Shown one piece after another: positions 1-31,532 of a stretch of 32,000 bases of DNA. Made by a program: the position numbers and the translations under genes. Positions within the stretch are counted from its first letter, which is position 1. Every line of letters starts with the position of its first letter. The DNA comes from Candidatus Saccharimonadota bacterium (lineage in GTDB: Bacteria; Patescibacteriota; Saccharimonadia; Saccharimonadales; Saccharimonadaceae): assembly GCA_020160975.1 (NCBI GenBank), contig JAIUPJ010000001.1:870001-902000 (forward strand). The letters run 5' to 3'. The notes under the pieces were generated by a model, which worked only from the letters and a program-made list of their open reading frames with translations, made no database searches and was not told the origin of the DNA.

Positions 1-2889
1 AACGATTGGAGCAAGGAAGTTTCGACGCACTTGCCGATCTATTACAAATGGACACAGTGGATTTTCTCAGAGATGTACCGTGCAGGACTTGCCTACCAAG
101 AACCACGCATGCAATGGTGGTGCACCAAGTGCCAAACGGTGCTCGCGAATGAGCAAGTAATCGACGGTAAATGTTGGCGCCACGACGCTCCTGATGACCC
201 GGAAGTCGCCAAAAAAGAAGTCAAACAGTGGTTTTTCAAAGTGACAGAATATGCCGATGAGATGCTCGAAGCCACCGATGCGCTCGACTGGAGCGAGGTA
301 GTAAAGGCTGCCCAGAAGAACTGGATAGGCAAGAGTGAGGGTGCGGAGGTACAGTTTGAAGTTCTGAGCTCTACTTTCTTAGAGAAAAAGGAGTCTAAAG
401 ATTCGCTGAAGTTTACCCCAGAGCTGACCAAAATGATCATCGACGGTAGCAAGACGTCCACTATTCGTCTTGAGCCAAAAAATGTAAACGTCGGGGACAC
501 AGTGGAGCTACTGACGCGCGATGGGGAAAGCGTTGACGCATTTGGATATGCGAAAATTACAAATATTCGCGCCATGAAGCTTGTTGATATTCCTAATGAC
601 CTGGCAGGTCACGAGCCGCTTAAAGATGATGCAGATAAACTGGCGCGATACCGTGGATATTATACGGACAACGTAACGCTTGAGACTGAATTTACCATTT
701 ACGACTTTGATAACTTAGAACTCAGATCTCAGAACGTAGAGCTCGATCCCATCACTGTCTTTACCACTCGTCCCGATACCATTTTTGGCGCGACGTTTTT
801 GGTGCTGGCGCCGGAGCACGAGTTGGTCAAACAAATTGTGACAGATGATGCGCGTGATGTCGTAGAGCAATATGTCAAGGATTCACTGAAAAAGTCAGAA
901 CTCGAGCGTCAAGAGACTAAAGAAAAGACCGGTGTGCCGACAGGCGCGCATGCCATCAATCCCGCAACGGGCGAGAAAATCCCTATCTGGGTGGCTGACT
1001 ATGTATTGGGTGGCTATGGCACTGGGGCTATCATGGCGGTGCCGGCACACGACGAGCGAGACCGGGAATTTGCGGAGAAGTTTGATTTGCCAGTAGTGCA
1101 AGTTGTGGCCGAAACGCTGCTTGATCAAGAAAATCCGCCTCGTGACGACAAGAAAAATACTCGGCGCAACGTAGCGATGTGCATTATCGACCATCCAACC
1201 GATGGGACGTTTTTGACGCTCAAATGGCATAAGCAACCATGGCATAATTTCGTGATGGGTGGCATCGAAGAAGGCGAGTCGCTCGAGGCCGCCGCGCGCC
1301 GAGAAATCACCGAAGAAACCGGCTATGTCGACATGTCGTTTGTCGAAAGTATGCCAGTCCCCCTCAATAGTAAGTTTTACGCAGCGCATAAAGACGTCAA
1401 CCGCGACATTATCACGCATGTCGTCCGGTTCAAACTCAATAGTCTCGATACGGTTGCGACTGCACGCGAGGAGCATGAGGATTTCGAGCCAATGTGGGTA
1501 GAGAAGTCAGCACTTTCTCAGTTGCAACCAGTCGCCGAGCTCGGGCATATTCTTCGTTGGCTCGACGGTGAAACACCGATTTATCATGGAGAAGGCGTAC
1601 TGGTAAATTCCGGCAAATTCGATGGTATGAGTAGTAGCGAGGCGCGCGAACAGATCGTGGCGTGGCTCGAGCAGCAAGGTGTCGGCAAAGCCAAAATAAC
1701 GTATAAAATCCGAGACTGGAGTGTCAGCCGCCAGCGCTATTGGGGCGCGCCGATTCCGGTCGTTCACTGCGACAAGGATGGTATCGTACTGGTGCCCGAT
1801 GACCTATTGCCAGTGATTTTGCCGGAGCTCGAAGATTTTGCCCCGAGCGGTGATGGTCGCAGCGCCCTGGCGCGCGCGACAGAGTGGCTCAACACGACCT
1901 GCCCAACATGTGGTGGCCCGTCAACCCGCGAGACCGATACGCTCGACACCTACATTTGTAGTAGTTGGTATTTCCTCAGGTATTTCGATGGTGCCAATGA
2001 GGAAAAGATTTTTGCCCCTGAAGTGGTCAACAAATGGATGCCGATAGACTTTTACAATGGCGGCGACCACGCGACGGCGCACATGATGTATGCACGATTT
2101 GTTACCCGCTTTTTTTGGCATCAAGGGCTGCTTGATAATCCCGAGCCGTTCAAAAAATTCCTCTTCAACGGCAAAGTGACCGCCAGTGACGGCACGATGT
2201 TCAGCAAGAGCAAAGGTAATGGTGTCGATCCACTCGAGATCATTAACCAAGGGTATGGCGCTGACGCCCTCCGGACGTATCTGATGTTTGCCGCGCCACT
2301 CGAGCAATGGATTCGCTGGGATTCACAGGGCGTACCTGGCACCTACCGCTTCCTCACTCGCGTGTGGAATTTGGCGCAAGAGTATCTTGCTGCCGACAAA
2401 TCACGCGTTGACGACACAGCACTGAGGCTTGTTCATCCTGTGATCAAAAAAGTTACAGGCGACCTGGAGGAGCAAAAGTACAACACAGCAATCGCCGCCA
2501 TGATGGAGTTGACGAACAATCTCTACGCGCTCAAGGCCAAAAATGGTTTCAGCAGTGACTGGCAGTTCGCGCTCGAGAGCCTGGTAGCGCTCGTAGCGCC
2601 TTTTGCGCCACACATGGCCGATCAGCTGTGGCACGACCTTGGTCATGAGACGAGTGTACAGCGCGATAGCTGGCCGCAGTGGGATGACGCTTACCTGACG
2701 AGTGACACAATGACGATTATTGTACAAGTCAATGGCAAATTGCGCGCCAAGCTGGAAATTGCAGTAGATACGAACGAAGTTGAAATCAAAAAACTCGCCC
2801 TAGAAGACGAGAACGTGCAGAAGTTTGTGACTAACGAGCCAAAGAAGGTTATTTACGTTAAAAACAAGCTCGTTAGTATTGTCGTGTAG
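1..2889 (+). CDS. leuS: Leucine--tRNA ligase, 5'-truncated by the window edge (frame is open from nt 1), carrying two extra inserted domains
   Basis: Class I LeuRS motifs: NWIGKSEGAEV, TTRPDTIFGATFLVLAPEH (CP1 editing start), GTGAIMAVPAHDERD, YKIRDWSVSRQRYWGAPIP, a CPTCGG zinc motif, a KMSKS-like FSKSKGNG, and a C-terminal VQVNGKLR tRNA-binding domain. Stop TAG at 2887-2889. Confidence 0.95.
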   Translation, partial: NDWSKEVSTHLPIYYKWTQWIFSEMYRAGLAYQEPRMQWWCTKCQTVLANEQVIDGKCWRHDAPDDPEVAKKEVKQWFFKVTEYADEMLEATDALDWSEVVKAAQKNWIGKSEGAEVQFEVLSSTFLEKKESKDSLKFTPELTKMIIDGSKTSTIRLEPKNVNVGDTVELLTRDGESVDAFGYAKITNIRAMKLVDIPNDLAGHEPLKDDADKLARYRGYYTDNVTLETEFTIYDFDNLELRSQNVELDPITVFTTRPDTIFGATFLVLAPEHELVKQIVTDDARDVVEQYVKDSLKKSELERQETKEKTGVPTGAHAINPATGEKIPIWVADYVLGGYGTGAIMAVPAHDERDREFAEKFDLPVVQVVAETLLDQENPPRDDKKNTRRNVAMCIIDHPTDGTFLTLKWHKQPWHNFVMGGIEEGESLEAAARREITEETGYVDMSFVESMPVPLNSKFYAAHKDVNRDIITHVVRFKLNSLDTVATAREEHEDFEPMWVEKSALSQLQPVAELGHILRWLDGETPIYHGEGVLVNSGKFDGMSSSEAREQIVAWLEQQGVGKAKITYKIRDWSVSRQRYWGAPIPVVHCDKDGIVLVPDDLLPVILPELEDFAPSGDGRSALARATEWLNTTCPTCGGPSTRETDTLDTYICSSWYFLRYFDGANEEKIFAPEVVNKWMPIDFYNGGDHATAHMMYARFVTRFFWHQGLLDNPEPFKKFLFNGKVTASDGTMFSKSKGNGVDPLEIINQGYGADALRTYLMFAAPLEQWIRWDSQGVPGTYRFLTRVWNLAQEYLAADKSRVDDTALRLVHPVIKKVTGDLEEQKYNTAIAAMMELTNNLYALKAKNGFSSDWQFALESLVALVAPFAPHMADQLWHDLGHETSVQRDSWPQWDDAYLTSDTMTIIVQVNGKLRAKLEIAVDTNEVEIKKLALEDENVQKFVTNEPKKVIYVKNKLVSIVV
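403..714 (+). other. ASCH/PUA-like domain inserted in LeuS between GAEVQFEV and the TTRPDT editing-domain start (boundaries approximate)
   Basis: About 125 extra residues compared with E. coli and T. thermophilus LeuRS as I recall them. Pattern FTPELTKMIIDGSKTSTIRL..NVGDTVEL..FGYAKITNIR..FTIYDF resembles the ASCH signature (I-x-x-G-x-K-T-x-x-R, GD, beta-barrel). Confidence 0.5.
1162..1566 (+). other. Nudix hydrolase domain inserted in LeuS directly after the editing domain (boundaries approximate)
   Basis: Perfect Nudix box GX5EX7REUXEEXGU: GGIEEGESLEAAARREITEETGY, nt 1258-1326. About 150 extra residues lie between FDLPVVQVV and GVLVNSGKFDG, which are nearly contiguous in ordinary LeuRS. Confidence 0.8.
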
Positions 2890-3566: not shown

Positions 3567-4028
3567 ATGGCCTCAAACCGTCATCTTGGACGCATCGTCG
3601 CATTACAGACACTCTACGAATTTGAATTTCGTAGTCAATCTGGAGATCCGGATGTCAATGTGGATGAAATCCTCGGTCGCAACCTCGCGAGATACGAGAC
3701 GGCGATTGATGATACGGCGTTTGTTAAAGACCTCGTCGAAGGCGTGCTTGCTGCGCGAGACGAACTGGATGCAAAGCTTCAGCCGATTGCCCCAGAATGG
3801 CCGCTCGAGCAGATCGCACGGATTGATCGCGCCGTACTGCGGCTTGGCTTGTATGAATTACTACACCGCAGCGACAAAGTGCCGCCAAAGGTAGCGATCA
3901 ATGAAGCGGTTGAGCTGGCAAAAGCATTTGGTTCTGATAACTCGAGTAAGTTCATTAACGGCGTGCTTGGCACGGCGTTTCGAACACTGCTAGGAGAGTC
4001 AGATAATGCCGAAACCACAAAAGCCTAG
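3567..4028 (+). CDS. nusB: Transcription antitermination factor NusB
   Basis: LQTLYEFEF near the N-terminus and [25 protein letters not shown], the classic NusB C-terminal motif. Confidence 0.9.
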
Positions 4029-4503
4029 GCTCGAAACATTCAAGAAATACTTCAAGCCCAAGGCATCAATACAAGAGATTGTCCGCGAGCCAACTGCTGG
4101 TGGCATCGTGTTTCGTCATGGCGAAAAAGATATTGAAATTCTACTGATTCAGGATGCAAAAGATCGCTGGACGATCCCCAAAGGCCATATCGAAGAGGGT
4201 GAGACGGCTGTCCAGACTGCCCGTCGTGAGATTGGCGAAGAAGCCGGTTTGACCGACGTTGATATGCTGGGGTGGCTCGGCAAGATTCACTTTCGCTACC
4301 GCCGTATCGACCGACTGGTGCTCATGACAACGCAGATTTATCTGGTGCGAGTGCGCACTGATGGTAATGAGATCAAGAAGGAAGAGTGGATGAATGGCAT
4401 TAAATGGTTTTCGTTCAATGAAGCGCTAGACCTGATCGAGTATGAAGATATCGCGAAGCTAATGCTCAAAGCCAAAACCCGGGTGCGCGAGGAGAACTTG
4501 TAG
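4006..4503 (+). CDS. Nudix hydrolase (165 aa), overlapping the nusB 3' end by 23 nt
   Basis: Nudix box [25 protein letters not shown] aggagag at 3991-3997. Confidence 0.85.
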
Positions 4504-25647: not shown

Positions 25648-26559
25648 ATGAAAAAGTACCGCGTGATGTTTGGGGTAGCCGCTACGATTATTATCTTGTC
25701 ATTGTTAGGGTATTTATTGGCGCGGACGGGACATTATGACATCTTGCAGCCAATGGGTGATATCGCCAAGCAGCAACGCAACTTACTGTACTTTGCATTG
25801 CTGCTTTGTGCTGTAGTGGTGGTACCGGTATTTATCATGCTCGGTAGTTTCGCGTGGAAATTCCGTGAAGGCAACAAAAAGGCGCACTACAAACCAGAAT
25901 GGAGTGAAAATAAACTCCTTGAGGTTGTGTGGTGGGGGATTCCGATCGTCATTATCAGTATCCTGGCGGTTGTTGCATGGTCTACAAGCCATTCGCTCGA
26001 CCCGTATCGTCCTATTGCCTCCAACAAAAAAGCCATTGAAGTGCAAGTTGTCGCGTTGCAGTGGAAATGGCTATTTATTTACCCAGAACTTGGCGTGGCG
26101 ACACTCAATCAATTGCCAGTACCCGTCGGAACGCCGGTGCATTTTACACTAACTGCTGATGCGCCGATGAGCGCGTTTTGGGTGCCAACGCTTGGTTCGC
26201 AAATCTACACGATGAATGGCATGAGTAGCCAGCTTTACTTGATCGCCGACCATGCGGGCGATTTCCCTGGATACACGACGAATATCAATGGCGAGGGATA
26301 TGCTGACATGAAATTCATGGTACATGCGCAACCTGAAGCAGCATTTAATTCGTGGGTTGAACGAGCTAGGGGGTCGTCGCAGATGATGGACGCTGCCGCC
26401 TACGAGACACTTGCAAAACCAGGAGTCATTACCGAAGAGCGAGAATATATGCTGATGGACGACAACTTGTATAGTAAAGTTCTAGAAAAATACATGGCAC
26501 CAAAAGACCAGCAAATGGATCACAGCTCGTCGACGATGCCGGTAATGGAGGGAATGTAA
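25648..26559 (+). CDS. cyoA: Cytochrome bo3-type ubiquinol oxidase subunit II
   Basis: Two N-terminal TM helices and a cupredoxin-like domain. ALQWKWLFIYPELGVATLNQL resembles E. coli CyoA (DWKWFFIYPEQGIATVNE). Operon context. Confidence 0.9.
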   Translation: MKKYRVMFGVAATIIILSLLGYLLARTGHYDILQPMGDIAKQQRNLLYFALLLCAVVVVPVFIMLGSFAWKFREGNKKAHYKPEWSENKLLEVVWWGIPIVIISILAVVAWSTSHSLDPYRPIASNKKAIEVQVVALQWKWLFIYPELGVATLNQLPVPVGTPVHFTLTADAPMSAFWVPTLGSQIYTMNGMSSQLYLIADHAGDFPGYTTNINGEGYADMKFMVHAQPEAAFNSWVERARGSSQMMDAAAYETLAKPGVITEEREYMLMDDNLYSKVLEKYMAPKDQQMDHSSSTMPVMEGM

Positions 26560-28514
26560 TGTTTGGTCGACTGAGCTTGGATTATCTGCCACACGAACCG
26601 GCAACTATTGGAGCAGCCGTTGCTATGCCATTGGCGCTGATCGCTATTGCTGTCGCACTGACGTACTATAAGAAATGGCGCTGGCTCTGGCGTGAGTGGC
26701 TGACATCGCTTGATGCCAAAAAAATCGGTGTCATGTATATCGTGGTGGCTATCGTAATGTTGCTTCGTGGCGTGGCGGACGCGGTGATGCTTCGTATGCA
26801 GACGGCGCTAGCGGTGGGTGATAATCCCGGGCTGTTTAGCGTAGACACATTTCAGCAGGTATTTACTGCTCACGGCACAATTATGATTTTTTTCGTGGCG
26901 ATGGGGTTGATGTTTGGGATTATCAATGTCGTCATGCCGCTACAAATTGGCGCGCGAGATGTGGCATTTCCGTGGCTAAACTCAGTCAGTTTTTGGTTGT
27001 TTGTGGCGGGGATGATTCTGGTTAACGGGGCGCTACTATTTGGTGGCTTTAGCAACGGTGGTTGGCTCGGCTATCCTCCGCTCACAGAGCTGCAGTACAA
27101 TCCCGGCCCGGGGGTTGACTACTGGATTTGGGCACTGCAAATTGCGGGCATTGGCTCGCTGCTCAGCGGTATTAATTTCACAGTGACAATCCTCAAAAAA
27201 CGCGCACCTGGCATGACGCTGATGAAAATGCCGATTTTTGTCTGGAGTGTGTTGGTGACGATGGTGTTGGTCATGATTTCATTCCCCATGCTGACGAGCG
27301 CACTCAGCCTTCTCGCACTTGACCGCACACTCGACATGCATTTCTTTACCAGCAATATGGGCGGGAACCCGATGATGTATATCAACCTTATATGGGCATG
27401 GGGACATCCCGAAGTGTATATTTTAGTCCTACCGGCATTTGGGATATATAGTGAGGTAGTAGCGACGTTCGCGCGCAAAAAATTGTTTGGCTACAAAACG
27501 ATGGTCGCTGCGTTGGTTGCGATCATGTTCTTCAGTTTTGTGGTATGGCAGCACCACTTCTTCACGATGGGAGCGGGTGCGAATGTTAATGCGTTCTTTG
27601 GCATTATGACGATGATCATCGCTATCCCGACGGGCGTCAAAATCTTTAACTGGCTCTTTACGATGTACCGTGGCCGGATTCGTTTCACCGCGCCGTTTGT
27701 CTGGTTTATGTGTTTTGTCGTGACCTTTACGATTGGTGGAGTGACGGGCGTATTGATGGCAGTGCCAGCGCTTGACTTCCAAATTCATAACAGCATGTTC
27801 TTGGTGGCGCACTTCCATAATGTGATTATTGGCGGCGTAGTCTTTGGTTATCTCGCAGGAATTACCTATTGGTTTCCAAAAGTACTCGGGTTTCGTTTGC
27901 ATGACCGCCTGGGGCGCTGGTCAGCCTATGCTTGGCAGGTGGGGTTTTTGTTGGCATTTCTGCCGCTCTACGCGCTGGGCCTAATGGGCGCGGTGCGGCG
28001 GATCGATCACTACACTGACCCGAGCTGGCAGCCGTTCTTTATTGTGTCGGCTGTCGGTGTGCTGACGATCGCACTGGGTATTGGCTTGTTTGTATTGCAG
28101 ATCGGAGTGAGTGTGTGGCAACGTAAGAAGCTGCGTGATACAAATGGCGATCCCTGGGACGGCCGTACATTGGAGTGGTCGGTGCCATCGCCTGCGCCCC
28201 ACTATAACTTTGCAATCCAGCCAACAGTGAGCCGGATTGATGAATGGTGGTACCAGAAAAAAGATGGCGTGGCACGACCTACTCGAAACGACTACAAAGA
28301 CATTGTTCTGCCGAAAAATAGTGGGCTAGGAGTGGCGATCGGTCTGTTGTGCTTTGTATTTGGCGGCGCAGTGATTTGGCACCTATGGTGGCTCGCGGCG
28401 TTAGCATTTGTCGGTGTGATCGTGGTGATACTGGTGCGAACCTTTGATGAAAATACTGAGTATACGATGACAGCTGAAAAGCTGTACCAAGAGGCGAAGG
28501 AGGCGCGGGTATGA
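26559..28514 (+). CDS. cyoB: Cytochrome bo3-type ubiquinol oxidase subunit I
   Basis: Long runs match E. coli CyoB as I recall it: MFG.LSLD, EWLTS.D.K..G.MYI.VAIVMLLRG, YINLIWAWGHPEVYIL, HHFFTMGAGANVNAFFGI.TMIIAIPTGVKIFNWLFTMY.GRI, HFHNVIIGGVVFG. Confidence 0.97.
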   Translation: MFGRLSLDYLPHEPATIGAAVAMPLALIAIAVALTYYKKWRWLWREWLTSLDAKKIGVMYIVVAIVMLLRGVADAVMLRMQTALAVGDNPGLFSVDTFQQVFTAHGTIMIFFVAMGLMFGIINVVMPLQIGARDVAFPWLNSVSFWLFVAGMILVNGALLFGGFSNGGWLGYPPLTELQYNPGPGVDYWIWALQIAGIGSLLSGINFTVTILKKRAPGMTLMKMPIFVWSVLVTMVLVMISFPMLTSALSLLALDRTLDMHFFTSNMGGNPMMYINLIWAWGHPEVYILVLPAFGIYSEVVATFARKKLFGYKTMVAALVAIMFFSFVVWQHHFFTMGAGANVNAFFGIMTMIIAIPTGVKIFNWLFTMYRGRIRFTAPFVWFMCFVVTFTIGGVTGVLMAVPALDFQIHNSMFLVAHFHNVIIGGVVFGYLAGITYWFPKVLGFRLHDRLGRWSAYAWQVGFLLAFLPLYALGLMGAVRRIDHYTDPSWQPFFIVSAVGVLTIALGIGLFVLQIGVSVWQRKKLRDTNGDPWDGRTLEWSVPSPAPHYNFAIQPTVSRIDEWWYQKKDGVARPTRNDYKDIVLPKNSGLGVAIGLLCFVFGGAVIWHLWWLAALAFVGVIVVILVRTFDENTEYTMTAEKLYQEAKEARV

Positions 28515-29086
28515 TCAGAACGAAAGAGCAAGAAAGTGCCCCGATGCTAGGATTTTGGTTGTACCTGATGACAGATTTGATGCTATTTGCTACGGTATTT
28601 GCAACCTTTATGGTGTTGCGGCACGCTACAGCAGGCGGGCCAAGCGCGCCAGAACTATTCTCCATGAAAACGGTGCTGACTGAAACAATGATATTGCTAG
28701 CAAGTAGCTTGTTCTGCGGTCTGGCATGGCTGGCACTTCGTCACAAAAAACGCACAGATTTCTTGATGTATAGCATCGCGACATTGCTGGCTGGCGCAGT
28801 GTTTTTGGCAATCGAGATCCAAGAGTTTGCTCAGCTTGTGCATGAAGGATTCGGGCCAAGCACGAGCGCGTTTTTGAGTAGCTTTTTCACACTTGTTGGT
28901 ATGCATGGATTTCACATTGCGATTGGATTACTATGGGGGATAGCACTGTTGATTATGTTTGCGAAAAAGGGTTTCGGGTCGTCGCTCGCAAGAAAGTTTG
29001 CGCTGTTTGCGGTATTTTGGCATTTTCTTGATATTGTCTGGATATTCATTTTCACCATTGTGTATGTTATAGGAGTGCACGCATGA
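28511..29086 (+). CDS. cyoC: Cytochrome bo3-type ubiquinol oxidase subunit III
   Basis: Five-TM protein with LGFWLYLMTDLMLFATVFATF and FWHFLDIVWIFIFT motifs. ATGA overlap with cyoB. Confidence 0.9.
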   Translation: MIRTKEQESAPMLGFWLYLMTDLMLFATVFATFMVLRHATAGGPSAPELFSMKTVLTETMILLASSLFCGLAWLALRHKKRTDFLMYSIATLLAGAVFLAIEIQEFAQLVHEGFGPSTSAFLSSFFTLVGMHGFHIAIGLLWGIALLIMFAKKGFGSSLARKFALFAVFWHFLDIVWIFIFTIVYVIGVHA

Positions 29087-29448
29087 GCGCCATTGACGAC
29101 TATCGCAAAGAAACGATCCGATATATTGTTGGTGCCGTGGCAGCAGCAGTCCTGACATATGTGGTGTATATGGTTGCTGTCGAACAACGGCTCGAGGCCG
29201 TGTGGCTGGCGGTAGTTGCGCTGGGCCTAGCGATGGTGCAGCTGTTAGTGCAAATGGTGAGCTTTCTCCACCTGGGAAATGAAACCAAGCCGCGCTGGAA
29301 AGCGCAGAGCTTTGTTTTTGCTTTCCTCATGGCGACGGTGATTATGGTGGGGTCTATTTGGATCATGGCGAACCTCGACTACAATATGGGCATGTCGCCG
29401 CAGCAAATGGATGAGTACATGATAAAACAAAACAAAAAAGGCTTTTAA
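29083..29448 (+). CDS. cyoD: Cytochrome bo3-type ubiquinol oxidase subunit IV
   Basis: Three-TM small subunit at the conserved operon position. VQLLVQMVSFLHL resembles CyoD. ATGA overlap with cyoC. Confidence 0.8.
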   Translation: MSAIDDYRKETIRYIVGAVAAAVLTYVVYMVAVEQRLEAVWLAVVALGLAMVQLLVQMVSFLHLGNETKPRWKAQSFVFAFLMATVIMVGSIWIMANLDYNMGMSPQQMDEYMIKQNKKGF

Positions 29449-30309
29449 ATGGTTTCAGCTCGGACGTATTATCGACTGACAAAGCCGGGTATTGTATATG
29501 GAAATGTGTTCCATGCTGCCGTTGGCGTGCTATTGGCGCACGCCTCGGGACTGACGCTTCTGTGGTCGGGCGGCGGGCTAATTCTGGGTATTACCGCTGT
29601 CATTGCATCGGCATGTGTTGCAAATAATATCATGGATCGTCGTATCGACAGCAAAATGGCCCGCACCAAGAAGCGGGCGATGGTTATTGGTCAAATTGAG
29701 ACACCATCAGCAGTACTATTCGCGCTGATACTTTTGACGGTTGGCGTGACGGTGCTCGTGCGCACGACAAATTTTCTCACTGTTATTCTTTGTCTCGTGG
29801 CATACATTTGGTATGTATGGATTTACGGTTGGGCAAAACGCACCACCTGGTGGTCAACGGTAATTGGCACCGTGCCAGGGGCAATCCCCATTATGGCCGG
29901 CTATACCGCGGTGACCAACCATCTGGATGCTAGTGCATGGTTGCTCTTTGCGATGCTGGTACTATGGCAATTGCCTCATTTTTATGCAATCGCGCTGTAC
30001 CGCGAAAAAGAATACCGAGCAGCCAAACTGCCTATTATTTCCGTCTCGCTCGGCAGGCACCAGACATGGCGCCAGATGGCTGTGTACGGTACGCTGTATG
30101 TTCTGTCACTCGTTGGGCTGGTGATTGCACAAACATTTGCATTGATTCCGGGGCTGATCGTTTTGGCTGCTGGGGCCTACTGGTTGGTAATTATTTTTCG
30201 CGGTCGCACCCAGGTGAGTGACACATGGGCACGTCATGTGTTTAGGCTGTCGCTCCTTTTGACGATCGTACTTTTTGTGGCAAGTAGCATCACCGTTGTA
30301 ATATCATAA
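29449..30309 (+). CDS. cyoE: Protoheme IX farnesyltransferase (heme O synthase)
   Basis: UbiA-family motif NNIMDRRIDSKMARTKKRAMV, polytopic, operon position. Confidence 0.9.
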   Translation: MVSARTYYRLTKPGIVYGNVFHAAVGVLLAHASGLTLLWSGGGLILGITAVIASACVANNIMDRRIDSKMARTKKRAMVIGQIETPSAVLFALILLTVGVTVLVRTTNFLTVILCLVAYIWYVWIYGWAKRTTWWSTVIGTVPGAIPIMAGYTAVTNHLDASAWLLFAMLVLWQLPHFYAIALYREKEYRAAKLPIISVSLGRHQTWRQMAVYGTLYVLSLVGLVIAQTFALIPGLIVLAAGAYWLVIIFRGRTQVSDTWARHVFRLSLLLTIVLFVASSITVVIS

Positions 30310-30335
30310 GCGGTATCTTACAATAGGGGAAGTTT

Positions 30336-31532
30336 ATGAAAATTCTGATAGTTGGCGGTGGATTTGCTGGGGTACGTGCGGCACTTGAATTGGCCCGTGA
30401 TGCGACCAACGATATAACATTGGTGTCTGATAAGTCTGATTTCCAATACTACCCGACGCTCTATAGTAGCGCGACCGGACATAGTCACGCCGAATCATGG
30501 GCACCGCTGGGCGAGATATTTGCTGAGTACGATAATGTGACTGTATATATCGATGAAATCTCTGGAATTGATGCCGAGGCAAAAACGGTGACGGCAGTAT
30601 CTGGTACGGTGTATCACTATGCAACACTCATTATGGCTATTGGCATGGTGACATCGTACTTTGCCATTCCTGGCCTCGAAACATACTCGCACGGCATCAA
30701 AAATGCCGAACAAATCAAGCGTTTGAAACAGCAATTGTTTGTGGATATCGCCGAACGCCGTGAGCTCGACAAGAATTATATCGTGATTGGTGCGGGGCCA
30801 ACAGGAGTGGAACTAGCGGCAGCACTCGGGACTTACATCAAGCGACTATGCCGCTATTATGGAGTGAAGAAGTCAAATGTTAGAGTACGGCTGGTCGAGG
30901 CCGCGCCGCGCGTACTGCCCCGGTCAAGCAAGATGACGAGCCGAAAAGTCATGAAGCGACTCAAGCAATTAGGTGTTCGTGTCGAAGTCAACAAGCGTGT
31001 TGAGAGCGCAAACGCAAAGCAGTTGATTGTCAGCGGTAGGCCAATCGAAAGTCATACTGTCATTTGGACATCAGGTGTGACAAACCATCCATTCTTTGCT
31101 AATCATCCCGAAGTGTTCCGTATGGCGCAGAACGGCAGAGTAGAAGTTAATGATTATCTCGAAGCTGCTCCGAATATTTATGTGCTCGGCGACAACGCGG
31201 CCACACCCTATACCGGCCTGGCGCAAACGGCGCTTCACGACGCCGTGACGGTCGCCCGCAACTTGCGCCGCAAAGCGAATAACAAAAAGCCAAAAAAATA
31301 TCGAGCACGATTGCCGGCGTCAGCAATCCCTGTGGGCAAACGCTGGGCGGTGATAGAGTGGCGGTGGATTCGTATCTACGGTATCGTCGGGGCAATGATC
31401 CGTAGAGTGGCTGACTTGATTGGCTACATGGACATCATGCCAATCGGCACTTCGATTGGAGCGTGGCGGGCCGCACGTGTGTATGAGAACGATTACTTTA
31501 CGCCGACAGTGAAGATGAAGAGGATAAAGTAG
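30336..31532 (+). CDS. ndh: Type II NADH:quinone oxidoreductase (NDH-2)
   Basis: Two dinucleotide-binding motifs (KILIVGGGFAGV and YIVIGAGPTGVELAAAL) and VLGDNA. SD aggggaag upstream. Confidence 0.85.
   Translation: MKILIVGGGFAGVRAALELARDATNDITLVSDKSDFQYYPTLYSSATGHSHAESWAPLGEIFAEYDNVTVYIDEISGIDAEAKTVTAVSGTVYHYATLIMAIGMVTSYFAIPGLETYSHGIKNAEQIKRLKQQLFVDIAERRELDKNYIVIGAGPTGVELAAALGTYIKRLCRYYGVKKSNVRVRLVEAAPRVLPRSSKMTSRKVMKRLKQLGVRVEVNKRVESANAKQLIVSGRPIESHTVIWTSGVTNHPFFANHPEVFRMAQNGRVEVNDYLEAAPNIYVLGDNAATPYTGLAQTALHDAVTVARNLRRKANNKKPKKYRARLPASAIPVGKRWAVIEWRWIRIYGIVGAMIRRVADLIGYMDIMPIGTSIGAWRAARVYENDYFTPTVKMKRIK

Follow-up and report, generated by a model that had tools for sequence, protein, structure and literature searches.

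An ASCH domain embedded in the CP1 editing domain of a Saccharibacterial leucyl-tRNA synthetase

What does an ASCH domain do inside a leucyl-tRNA synthetase (LeuRS)? The question is raised by the first gene of a 32,000-nucleotide stretch of a Candidatus Saccharimonadota genome (contig JAIUPJ010000001.1, positions 870,001 to 902,000 of the forward strand; hereafter the window). This gene, leuS, encodes a LeuRS whose editing domain, connective peptide 1 (CP1), is interrupted near its N-terminal edge by a long additional segment. The core of the segment is an ASCH domain related to Escherichia coli YqfB. Judged by its conserved residues, the domain is probably a working hydrolase of N4-acylated cytidine, and a tentative case can be made that it would act on tRNA held by the synthetase.

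The host synthetase and the site of insertion

Frame 1 of window positions 1-2889 (+ strand) runs uninterrupted for 962 codons and a stop, its 5' end lying beyond the window start; the HIGH motif and the N-terminal Rossmann half are upstream of that point and are present in a full-length relative (P0004). The product is a bacterial-type LeuRS. It scores 747.7 bits against NCBIfam TIGR00396 leuS_bact (equivalog cut-off 548.4) and matches the Pfam families tRNA-synt_1_2 (LeuRS editing), tRNA-synt_1 (class I core) and Anticodon_1. It aligns to Thermus thermophilus LeuRS (1h3n; phmmer, E 1.6e-185) in four blocks, in which query residues 2-121, 251-370, 528-728 and 733-962 correspond to T. thermophilus residues 120-236, 243-363, 377-579 and 637-876. 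The editing and catalytic motifs TTRPDT (aa 255-260), AVPAHDERD (HDxRD) and FSKSKGNG (KMSKS-type loop) are aligned between the two enzymes.

Because this alignment breaks between query residues 121 and 251, the insert replaces six T. thermophilus residues (237-242) with 129 (aa 122-250, nt 364-750). It is flanked by GAEVQFEV (aa 114-121, nt 340-363) and ITVFTTRPDT (aa 251-260, nt 751-780). An earlier note on this DNA had quoted both strings, and the sequence of the insert, as they are written and had put about 125 extra residues between them, close to the number counted here; the coordinates that it gave for the module, 403-714 (aa 135-238), fall inside the domain defined below (aa 134-240). 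The note had also placed the insert at the N-terminal tether of the editing domain, and by the 1h3n alignment a place near the N-terminal boundary of CP1 is right: the insertion point is 13-18 residues beyond the start of the T. thermophilus editing domain, whose limits reportedly go back to Cusack in 2000, and 5 residues ahead of the T-rich peptide. From NWIG to TTRPDT the distance is 148 residues in the window, against 25 in the large majority of 80 related Saccharibacterial LeuRS loci. The features of the gene that concern the insert are the following.

1..2889, + strand: leuS open reading frame, bacterial-type LeuRS (TIGR00396, 1h3n alignment, Pfam)
319..363, + strand: end of the canonical LeuRS sequence ahead of the insert, NWIGKSEGAEVQFEV (aa 107-121), which forms the N-terminal strand into CP1 (aligned to T. 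thermophilus 222-236)
364..399, + strand: N-terminal linker of the insert (aa 122-133, LSSTFLEKKESK), unconstrained, with no LeuRS or ASCH hidden Markov model (HMM) match
400..720, + strand: ASCH domain (aa 134-240), YqfB-like GxKTxTxR type (family HMM, Pfam, profile, AlphaFold2, Foldseek, and nonsynonymous versus synonymous differences, pN/pS)
445..468, + strand: ASCH octapeptide G149-S-K151-T-S-T154-I-R156, aligned to YqfB G19-R26
607..615, + strand: G203-H204-E205 motif, with E205 the counterpart of the YqfB general acid Glu74 (HMM alignment)
661..663, + strand: Y221, counterpart of YqfB Tyr89 (nearly invariant column of the family alignment; alignment to YqfB Y89)
721..750, + strand: C-terminal linker of the insert (aa 241-250, LELRSQNVELDP region), unconstrained, outside the ASCH HMM and the LeuRS alignment

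Identity of the embedded domain

The assignment of the insert core to ASCH is solid. The whole protein scores 22.6 bits against Pfam ASCH (PF04266, gathering cut-off 21.2), the isolated insert scores 25.6 and 26.6 bits, and an HMM of the family (hmmsearch) gives the domain at aa 134-240 a score of 108 bits. A word-indexed search with the insert alone found a single relative, a fragment of another LeuRS, and an exhaustive HMMER search of 1.84 billion representatives was needed to recover 126 relatives with 30-53% identity. Most of these are free-standing, have about 108-116 residues and span the entire insert core; a few are LeuRS (P0001, P0002, P0004, P0009, P0014 and P0018) and some others are fusions. 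In the family alignment A1, made of the insert and 79 short relatives, the F, K, T, R and Y columns are nearly invariant, a GHE motif is present, and 77 of the 80 members match Pfam ASCH. The single insert has no match among PDB sequences (phmmer), and the family profile was needed here as well: it aligns with E. coli YqfB over the full length (9kyf, E 3.6e-9; 1te7, E 6.3e-9), with other ASCH structures next.

The predicted structure leads to the same fold. An alignment-based AlphaFold2 model of the insert (predicted local distance difference test, pLDDT, 96.5; predicted template modelling score, pTM, 0.86), preferred to a single-sequence model that was discarded (pLDDT 36), is a beta-barrel superposable on ASCH/YqfB. 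Searched against the PDB with Foldseek, its best 24 matches are all of the ASCH fold, 17 of them at E<=1e-3, and YqfB is closest by TM-score (0.74/0.79, root-mean-square deviation 2.5 A). The ASCH-like reading of the earlier note thus stands, with a Pfam score above gathering, a profile that reaches YqfB end to end and the modelled barrel. A conserved octapeptide near the N-terminus of the domain (G149-S-K-T-S-T-I-R156) fits the GxKx[T/E]xR-type motif defined in bioRxiv 10.64898/2026.02.27.708502, and by its sequence the insert is assigned to the same threonine-type (GxKTxTxR) branch as in that study. Its direct family consists of stand-alone ASCH proteins of ~110 aa, the MKTLKF..GxKTxTWRLFDDKDL..GHE..YYG subfamily.

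The architecture is not peculiar to one assembly. ASCH inserts are present in the LeuRS of four other genomes (L001, L002, L004 and L036) and in metagenomic LeuRS (P0001, P0002, P0004, P0014, P0018, P0148, P0152 and P0153); one 90%-identity cluster of ASCH-LeuRS, represented by P0004, has 246 members. The linkers differ between genomes in sequence and in size, with about 5 to about 35 residues. One might still suspect a chimeric assembly, a gene with a frameshift or in decay, or a spare paralogue of LeuRS, particularly as the window leuS is truncated at its 5' end. However, the 962 codons are read without interruption, the same architecture occurs in independent metagenome-assembled genomes (MAGs) and in the 246-member cluster, the domain is under purifying selection (see below) and the locus is syntenic. 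An artefact is thus effectively refuted, and we give it almost no weight.

The synteny extends to P0127, an abundant 916-aa ASCH-LeuRS of the P0004 cluster, whose locus has the same leuS-nusB-NUDIX-rnc-rpsP-KH-trmD order as the window. Since the order leuS-nusB-nudix-rnc-rpsP-trmD is conserved, the window leuS is the housekeeping copy and no spare. The conserved synteny together with the intact motifs speaks against an extra LeuRS paralogue. An intein or mobile-element insertion was also rejected, as a Pfam scan of the full protein contains no such domain and the insert has a normal enzyme fold. In base composition the insert (window 364-750) has the lowest third-position GC content of leuS (GC3 0.47-0.48, against 0.60 in the rest of the gene) and a total GC of 0.45 versus 0.52; for total GC it is at the 8.6th percentile of windows of equal size taken from the 32 kb. 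These values hint weakly at a different history and are no evidence of one.

Catalytic residues and selection

Does the embedded domain keep an active site? In the profile alignment, K151, T154 and R156 (nt 451-468) fall on K21, T24 and R26 of YqfB, E205 (nt 613-615) falls on E74, and Y221 (nt 661-663) on Y89. Mutagenesis has defined the roles of these residues in YqfB (PMC6972931; also bioRxiv 10.64898/2026.02.27.708502): K21A, T24A and R26A are inactive, E74A is reduced ~1000-fold and Y89A ~threefold (PMC6972931). The K, T and R of the octapeptide are at least 90% conserved in the family alignment, and all nine alignable LeuRS-embedded copies retain both GxKxxTxR and GHE. The catalytic Glu is lost in two free-standing relatives of the embedded clade, P0003 and P0006.

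Selection was gauged from pN/pS in a comparison of the window with L001. In every region synonymous sites are saturated (pS about 0.8), and the regions differ in pN: 0.06-0.10 in CP1 and the catalytic core, 0.23 in the ASCH core (pS 0.82), 0.22 in a second insert that is a Nudix domain (pS 0.80; see below) and 0.66 in the two linkers (pS 0.69). These differences indicate that both inserted domains are under purifying selection and that the linkers are unconstrained.

Because the residues essential in YqfB are kept and the domain is under purifying selection, the ASCH module is probably an active N4-acylcytidine amidohydrolase. Three observations temper this prediction. Asp27 of YqfB is not conserved, its position being taken by Leu157, and His70 has no aligned counterpart, since His204 of the GHE motif aligns to Gln73, three positions later; both residues are 100% conserved in the YqfB branch (PMC6972931). 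His204 may be a functional substitute for His70. In addition, the insert reaches 15.1 bits against the NCBIfam equivalog for YqfB (NF003443), below the cut-off of 93, and so belongs to a related subfamily and is no YqfB orthologue.

The domain could instead be non-catalytic: a structural spacer, an RNA- or ligand-binding element (for instance a sensor of cytidine or N4-acetylcytidine, ac4C, that tunes LeuRS) or a handle for protein interaction. ASCH was first proposed as an RNA-binding fold (PMC6972931), and the neck that holds the insertion belongs to a domain that has to swing in catalysis (PMC4138327). Against such a role, all nine embedded copies keep every catalytic residue, whereas the Glu is missing from two stand-alone relatives; the domain is acidic (net charge -6 in the window copy, median -4 among embedded domains) and so ill-suited to RNA binding; and close relatives function without it. 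On balance, a role without catalysis seems improbable.

Distribution and origin of the insert

The insert is present in few of the 80 Saccharibacterial loci and most are without it, as the comparison of orthologues proposed in the earlier note brings out; other ASCH-LeuRS come from metagenomes. A crude neighbour-joining tree of the LeuRS core sets the window beside L001, which carries both inserts. The nearest neighbours of this pair are L032 and L033, without inserts, and L003, with the Nudix domain only. Since relatives this close are without inserts, the modules have been acquired or shed over short periods, and leucylation does not require them; the ASCH module is accessory.

The embedded ASCH copies form one clade with a few free-standing proteins (P0003 and P0005-P0007), marked by two common one-residue deletions (RL-EPKN and DI-P) and by replacement of the Trp that follows the catalytic Thr. 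P0018, which belongs to a different LeuRS type, is outside the Saccharibacterial clade in the crude neighbour-joining tree, yet its ASCH has both diagnostic deletions. A single capture of ASCH by LeuRS is therefore at least as likely as two.

Short extensions are found at this site in some LeuRS. In the insert-less L037, one of 14 residues (VAGAESGKRKAEST) resembles the N-terminal ASCH linker of L001 (VAGSEARGKRQEAS) and may be the remnant of a lost ASCH domain. L018 and L038 have another short conserved extension in common (HPEL.SGSS...QVRND).

Gene context and the possible substrates

Which acylated cytidines would an active domain meet? The stand-alone members of the subfamily offer a first indication. 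In a Saccharibacterial MAG (GCA_964459635.1; L090 5001-5348), a stand-alone ASCH gene is placed between the KH gene and trmD in the rpsP operon, abutting the start of trmD, and this rpsP-KH-trmD neighbourhood is the one found downstream of leuS in the window. Another member starts 4 nt after an ArgRS gene, and other members are fused with NYN and RNase H-like nucleases.

These data are consistent with a role on tRNA, and our preferred proposal is that the domain deacylates N4-acylcytidine, with LeuRS serving as the platform that binds tRNA. We hold it tentatively, by analogy, and rate it as plausible but short of probable. Two linkers of ~10-12 residues splice the ASCH domain into a surface loop at the N-terminal edge of CP1, giving it an attachment point 5 residues in sequence from the T-rich peptide. 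In characterised LeuRS, the T-rich peptide lines the editing pocket and binds the CCA end of tRNA. Being acidic, the embedded domain would probably have no RNA affinity of its own, and LeuRS would provide it, in a manner comparable to the fused helix-turn-helix (HTH) of archaeal ASCH tRNA deacetylases. Its substrates would then be cytidines of tRNA that is bound to the editing domain or departing from it, from which it would strip the N4-acetyl group or another N4-acyl group. This activity would be accessory, as the motifs for both leucylation and editing remain intact and the module is missing from close relatives.

Work on other ASCH proteins gives this proposal its analogy. A 2026 preprint reports that all 19 ASCH proteins tested lower ac4C in tRNA; YqfB itself shows no nucleic acid binding, and the archaeal members owe tRNA binding to their fused HTH, which can be transplanted onto YqfB (bioRxiv 10.64898/2026.02.27.708502). 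The neighbours trmD and ArgRS, the nuclease fusions and the repeated insertions into CP1 likewise support a tRNA-directed role.

Several findings weigh against the platform proposal. In bacteria, ac4C is known at position 34 of elongator tRNAMet (bioRxiv 10.64898/2026.02.27.708502) and is not known in tRNALeu. For YqfB, the closest solved relative, the best-characterised activity is the one towards the free nucleoside (kcat/Km 2.8e6; PMC6972931). The linkers are long and unconstrained and therefore imply no fixed geometry towards bound tRNA, the distribution of the insert is patchy, and unrelated domains occupy the same site. The subfamily is also fused with Mur ligase, peptidase S51, PNPOx and Nudix, and its stand-alone genes occur in strings of small housekeeping hydrolases (UDG-GrpB-ASCH-His_Phos_1-HIT; isochorismatase-CYTH-glyoxalase). 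With partners this promiscuous and such clusters, an inference from fusion is weak.

The main rival is a role in salvage or house-cleaning, in which ASCH hydrolyses free N4-acetyl or N4-acyl cytidine, cytosine or nucleotides, feeding pyrimidine salvage in an organism unable to make nucleotides, with no coupling to tRNALeu. LeuRS would then be a mere carrier, suited to this by constitutive expression and by CP1 surface loops that tolerate insertions. YqfB has excellent kinetics on free ac4C and a broad scope that includes 5'-triphosphates (PMC6972931), and another 2026 preprint assigns human EOLA1 to free ac4C salvage. CPR (Candidate Phyla Radiation) bacteria are described as lacking nucleotide synthesis (10.64898/2026.07.13.738296). 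Salvage would also suit the stand-alone Nudix+ASCH fusions (P0038 and P0050), a CMP/dCMP-type deaminase that neighbours a stand-alone ASCH gene, the two hydrolase clusters named above, the Nudix, Ser_hydrolase and other domains at the same LeuRS sites, the unconstrained linkers, and the patchy distribution with close relatives that are missing the insert. However, a terminal fusion or a separate gene arises far more easily than an internal in-frame insertion, yet at least five domain families are found in CP1 loops of this one synthetase. LeuRS was the only aminoacyl-tRNA synthetase met in the exhaustive search, other subfamily members are linked to tRNA genes, and ASCH has been retained in the LeuRS of lineages with only about 50-70% identity in the LeuRS core. 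We rate salvage as only slightly less likely than the platform proposal.

A different acyl substrate, tied to the chemistry of LeuRS itself, would make the domain a repair or extended-proofreading activity. Candidates are N4-leucylated cytidines formed from Leu-AMP (at the CCA end or in CTP) and the N-acetyl group placed on Leu-tRNALeu by GNAT toxins. Enzymes of the YqfB type accept many N4-acyl groups and bulky 5' substituents (PMC6972931), there are 5 residues between the attachment point and the T-rich peptide of the editing pocket, and other hydrolases occur in CPR class Ia synthetases (Nudix and Ser_hydrolase, and His_Phos_1 in an IleRS-like protein). Yet this idea is purely speculative: such a cytidine lesion is undocumented here, and an N-acyl group on an alpha-amine is chemically unlike N4-acylcytosine. 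We regard it as very unlikely.

Several members of the subfamily (P0034, P0065, P0047 and P0044) are extended at the N-terminus by long stretches that have coiled-coil-like regions and apparent signal or transmembrane segments; they would be membrane-anchored ASCH proteins.

A second insert and other insertions in CP1

The remaining features of leuS are the following.

751..1110, + strand: body of the CP1 editing domain, from the ITVFTTRPDT start and including GTGAIMAVPAHDERD (T. thermophilus 243-363; Pfam tRNA-synt_1_2)
1111..1581, + strand: second CP1 insert (aa 371-527), a Nudix domain (Pfam NUDIX; replaces T. thermophilus 364-376)
1258..1326, + strand: intact Nudix box, GGIEEGESLEAAARREITEETGY (aa 420-442; Nudix box regular expression)
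1582..2889, + strand: rest of LeuRS, namely the end of CP1, the C-terminal tether KITYKIRDW, the catalytic core with the FSKSK loop, and the anticodon-binding and C-terminal domains (T. thermophilus 377-579 and 637-876)

The second insert puts 157 residues (aa 371-527, nt 1111-1581) in place of 13 in T. thermophilus LeuRS (364-376). It is a Nudix domain with 50.5-56.2 bits against Pfam NUDIX and a perfect Nudix box; its best NCBIfam matches are weak and RppH-like. With the free-standing Nudix protein of the window (4006-4503) it has only the Nudix box in common (E 3e-6 over 29 residues), and against the Nudix domain of the stand-alone fusion P0038 only the Nudix box matches. There is thus no evidence of a shared origin with P0038 or with the downstream Nudix gene.

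Insertions of this kind are common in the group. Among the 81 compared LeuRS, 36 have an intact Nudix box and five an ASCH HMM match (window, L001, L002, L004 and L036). The site used by ASCH is taken by a Ser_hydrolase/alpha-beta-hydrolase domain in L065, L073 and L074, by an unrecognised ~125-aa domain in L008 and L020, and by short low-complexity stretches in about ten others. At the Nudix site, L043 has another unrecognised domain of about 125 aa. L062, L064 and L067 have two Nudix domains, the second of them at a third site ahead of the RDW tether. A census with a mid-protein query found Nudix-bearing LeuRS beyond Saccharibacteria, in Paceibacterota, Wildermuthbacteria, Liptonbacteria and other Parcubacteria, as well as further ASCH-, hydrolase- and DUF559-bearing variants (DUF559/MTES_1575 in P0231). 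Source records give the insert-bearing LeuRS no other name than "leucine--tRNA ligase" or "class I tRNA ligase family protein". With at least five different domain families inserted in the CP1 loops of Patescibacterial LeuRS, CP1 of CPR LeuRS is an insertion hot-spot. This hot-spot, the Nudix domain and the dispensability of the ASCH module had escaped the earlier note.

A related arrangement was seen outside LeuRS. L089 6195-7421, a gene cut by the end of the locus, encodes a 1220-aa IleRS-like class I synthetase with His_Phos_1 between two tRNA-synt_1 matches (precomputed Pfam), which suggests an inserted hydrolase in another CPR class Ia synthetase. The L089 contig also carries a stand-alone ASCH gene that adjoins ArgRS.

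A broader view would take CP1 in the class Ia synthetases of Patescibacteria as a platform on which extra hydrolases dock and act in cis, among which ASCH would erase N4-acyl groups from cytidines of LeuRS-bound tRNA. The hydrolases would be ASCH, Nudix, serine hydrolase and possibly the histidine phosphatase in IleRS, and their targets would be tRNA or by-products of aminoacylation. For ASCH, these would be regulatory ac4C or adventitious N4-aminoacylation by Leu-AMP, the CCA end included. If true, this would amount to tRNA repair or extended proofreading of a new kind, resident in a synthetase; in this general form we consider the idea rather unlikely.

Other features of the locus

The leucine-specific domain is absent from the window LeuRS, as T. 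thermophilus residues ~580-636 are without a counterpart (query 728 to 733; region nt 2182-2199). Downstream of leuS follow nusB, a free-standing Nudix gene, rnc and, later, trmD. The Nudix hydrolase gene (4006-4503) overlaps the end of nusB 1.1 kb past leuS, an arrangement kept in L083-L086. The window also encodes HisRS and both PheRS subunits, all of ordinary architecture. At 25648-31532 there is a cytochrome o/aa3-type oxidase operon (COX2, COX1, COX3, a small ORF and a UbiA-family heme O synthase), followed within the same interval by an NDH-2-like pyridine nucleotide-disulphide oxidoreductase; this interval is an aerobic respiratory module in a Saccharibacterial genome.

Relation to known systems and significance

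Several known proteins resemble parts of this enzyme. Like the window domain, E. coli YqfB (1te7, 9kyf-9kyh) is an acidic ASCH barrel of ~105 residues with GxKTxTxR and a downstream Glu and Tyr, but it is a free-standing protein of 103 aa with about 22% identity to the domain, which is internal to LeuRS. Canonical LeuRS (T. thermophilus 1h3n/2byt; E. coli 4aq7/4arc) have the same core, CP1, tethers, and anticodon-binding and C-terminal domains, whereas the window enzyme carries ASCH and Nudix inserts and is without the leucine-specific domain. The archaeal ASCH-HTH ac4C deacetylases (Afu3ASCH and Pku4ASCH; bioRxiv 10.64898/2026.02.27.708502) likewise combine a catalytic ASCH with a separate tRNA-binding module. 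Theirs is a small C-terminal HTH and their octapeptides are of other types, whereas the partner in the window is an entire synthetase with ASCH internal to it; activity on tRNA has been demonstrated for the archaeal proteins and is only inferred for the window domain. NCBIfam NF040702, an IleRS with an N-acetyltransferase (GNAT), is also a housekeeping class I synthetase with an extra catalytic domain, and differs in the domain family and in the site, which here is the CP1 loop.

Eukaryotic aminoacyl-tRNA synthetases have accessory domains. To our knowledge, no precedent synthetase with an embedded or appended enzyme domain involves ASCH or Nudix. Literature searches found no ASCH module described in any aminoacyl-tRNA synthetase, in agreement with what had been supposed from the sequence, and searches on LeuRS, aminoacyl-tRNA synthetases and CPR found no description of Nudix or hydrolase insertions in CP1. 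A single paper names ASCH domains and an aminoacyl-tRNA synthetase together, and in an unrelated context (bioRxiv 10.64898/2026.02.27.708502). Thus, ASCH, LeuRS and synthetases with extra domains are already known, and an ASCH domain inside CP1 of LeuRS is apparently new.

The action of ASCH proteins on tRNA in cells is contested between the 2026 preprint, which presents them as general erasers of tRNA ac4C, and the work on salvage of free nucleosides. In ASCH-LeuRS, an enzyme that handles tRNA is physically joined to a member of the class newly proposed as tRNA "deacetylases". With its catalytic residues intact and its place in the tRNA-3'-end-handling domain of an essential synthetase, it offers a natural, selectively maintained test case for ASCH action on tRNA. 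It is also part of a wider, apparently undescribed pattern of hydrolase inserts in CP1 of CPR LeuRS, with Nudix in roughly 40% of the sampled relatives. These insertions bear on annotation, as ASCH is often unflagged in these proteins, on how far a swinging editing domain tolerates insertion, and on the biology of genome-reduced symbionts that depend on nucleotide scavenging.

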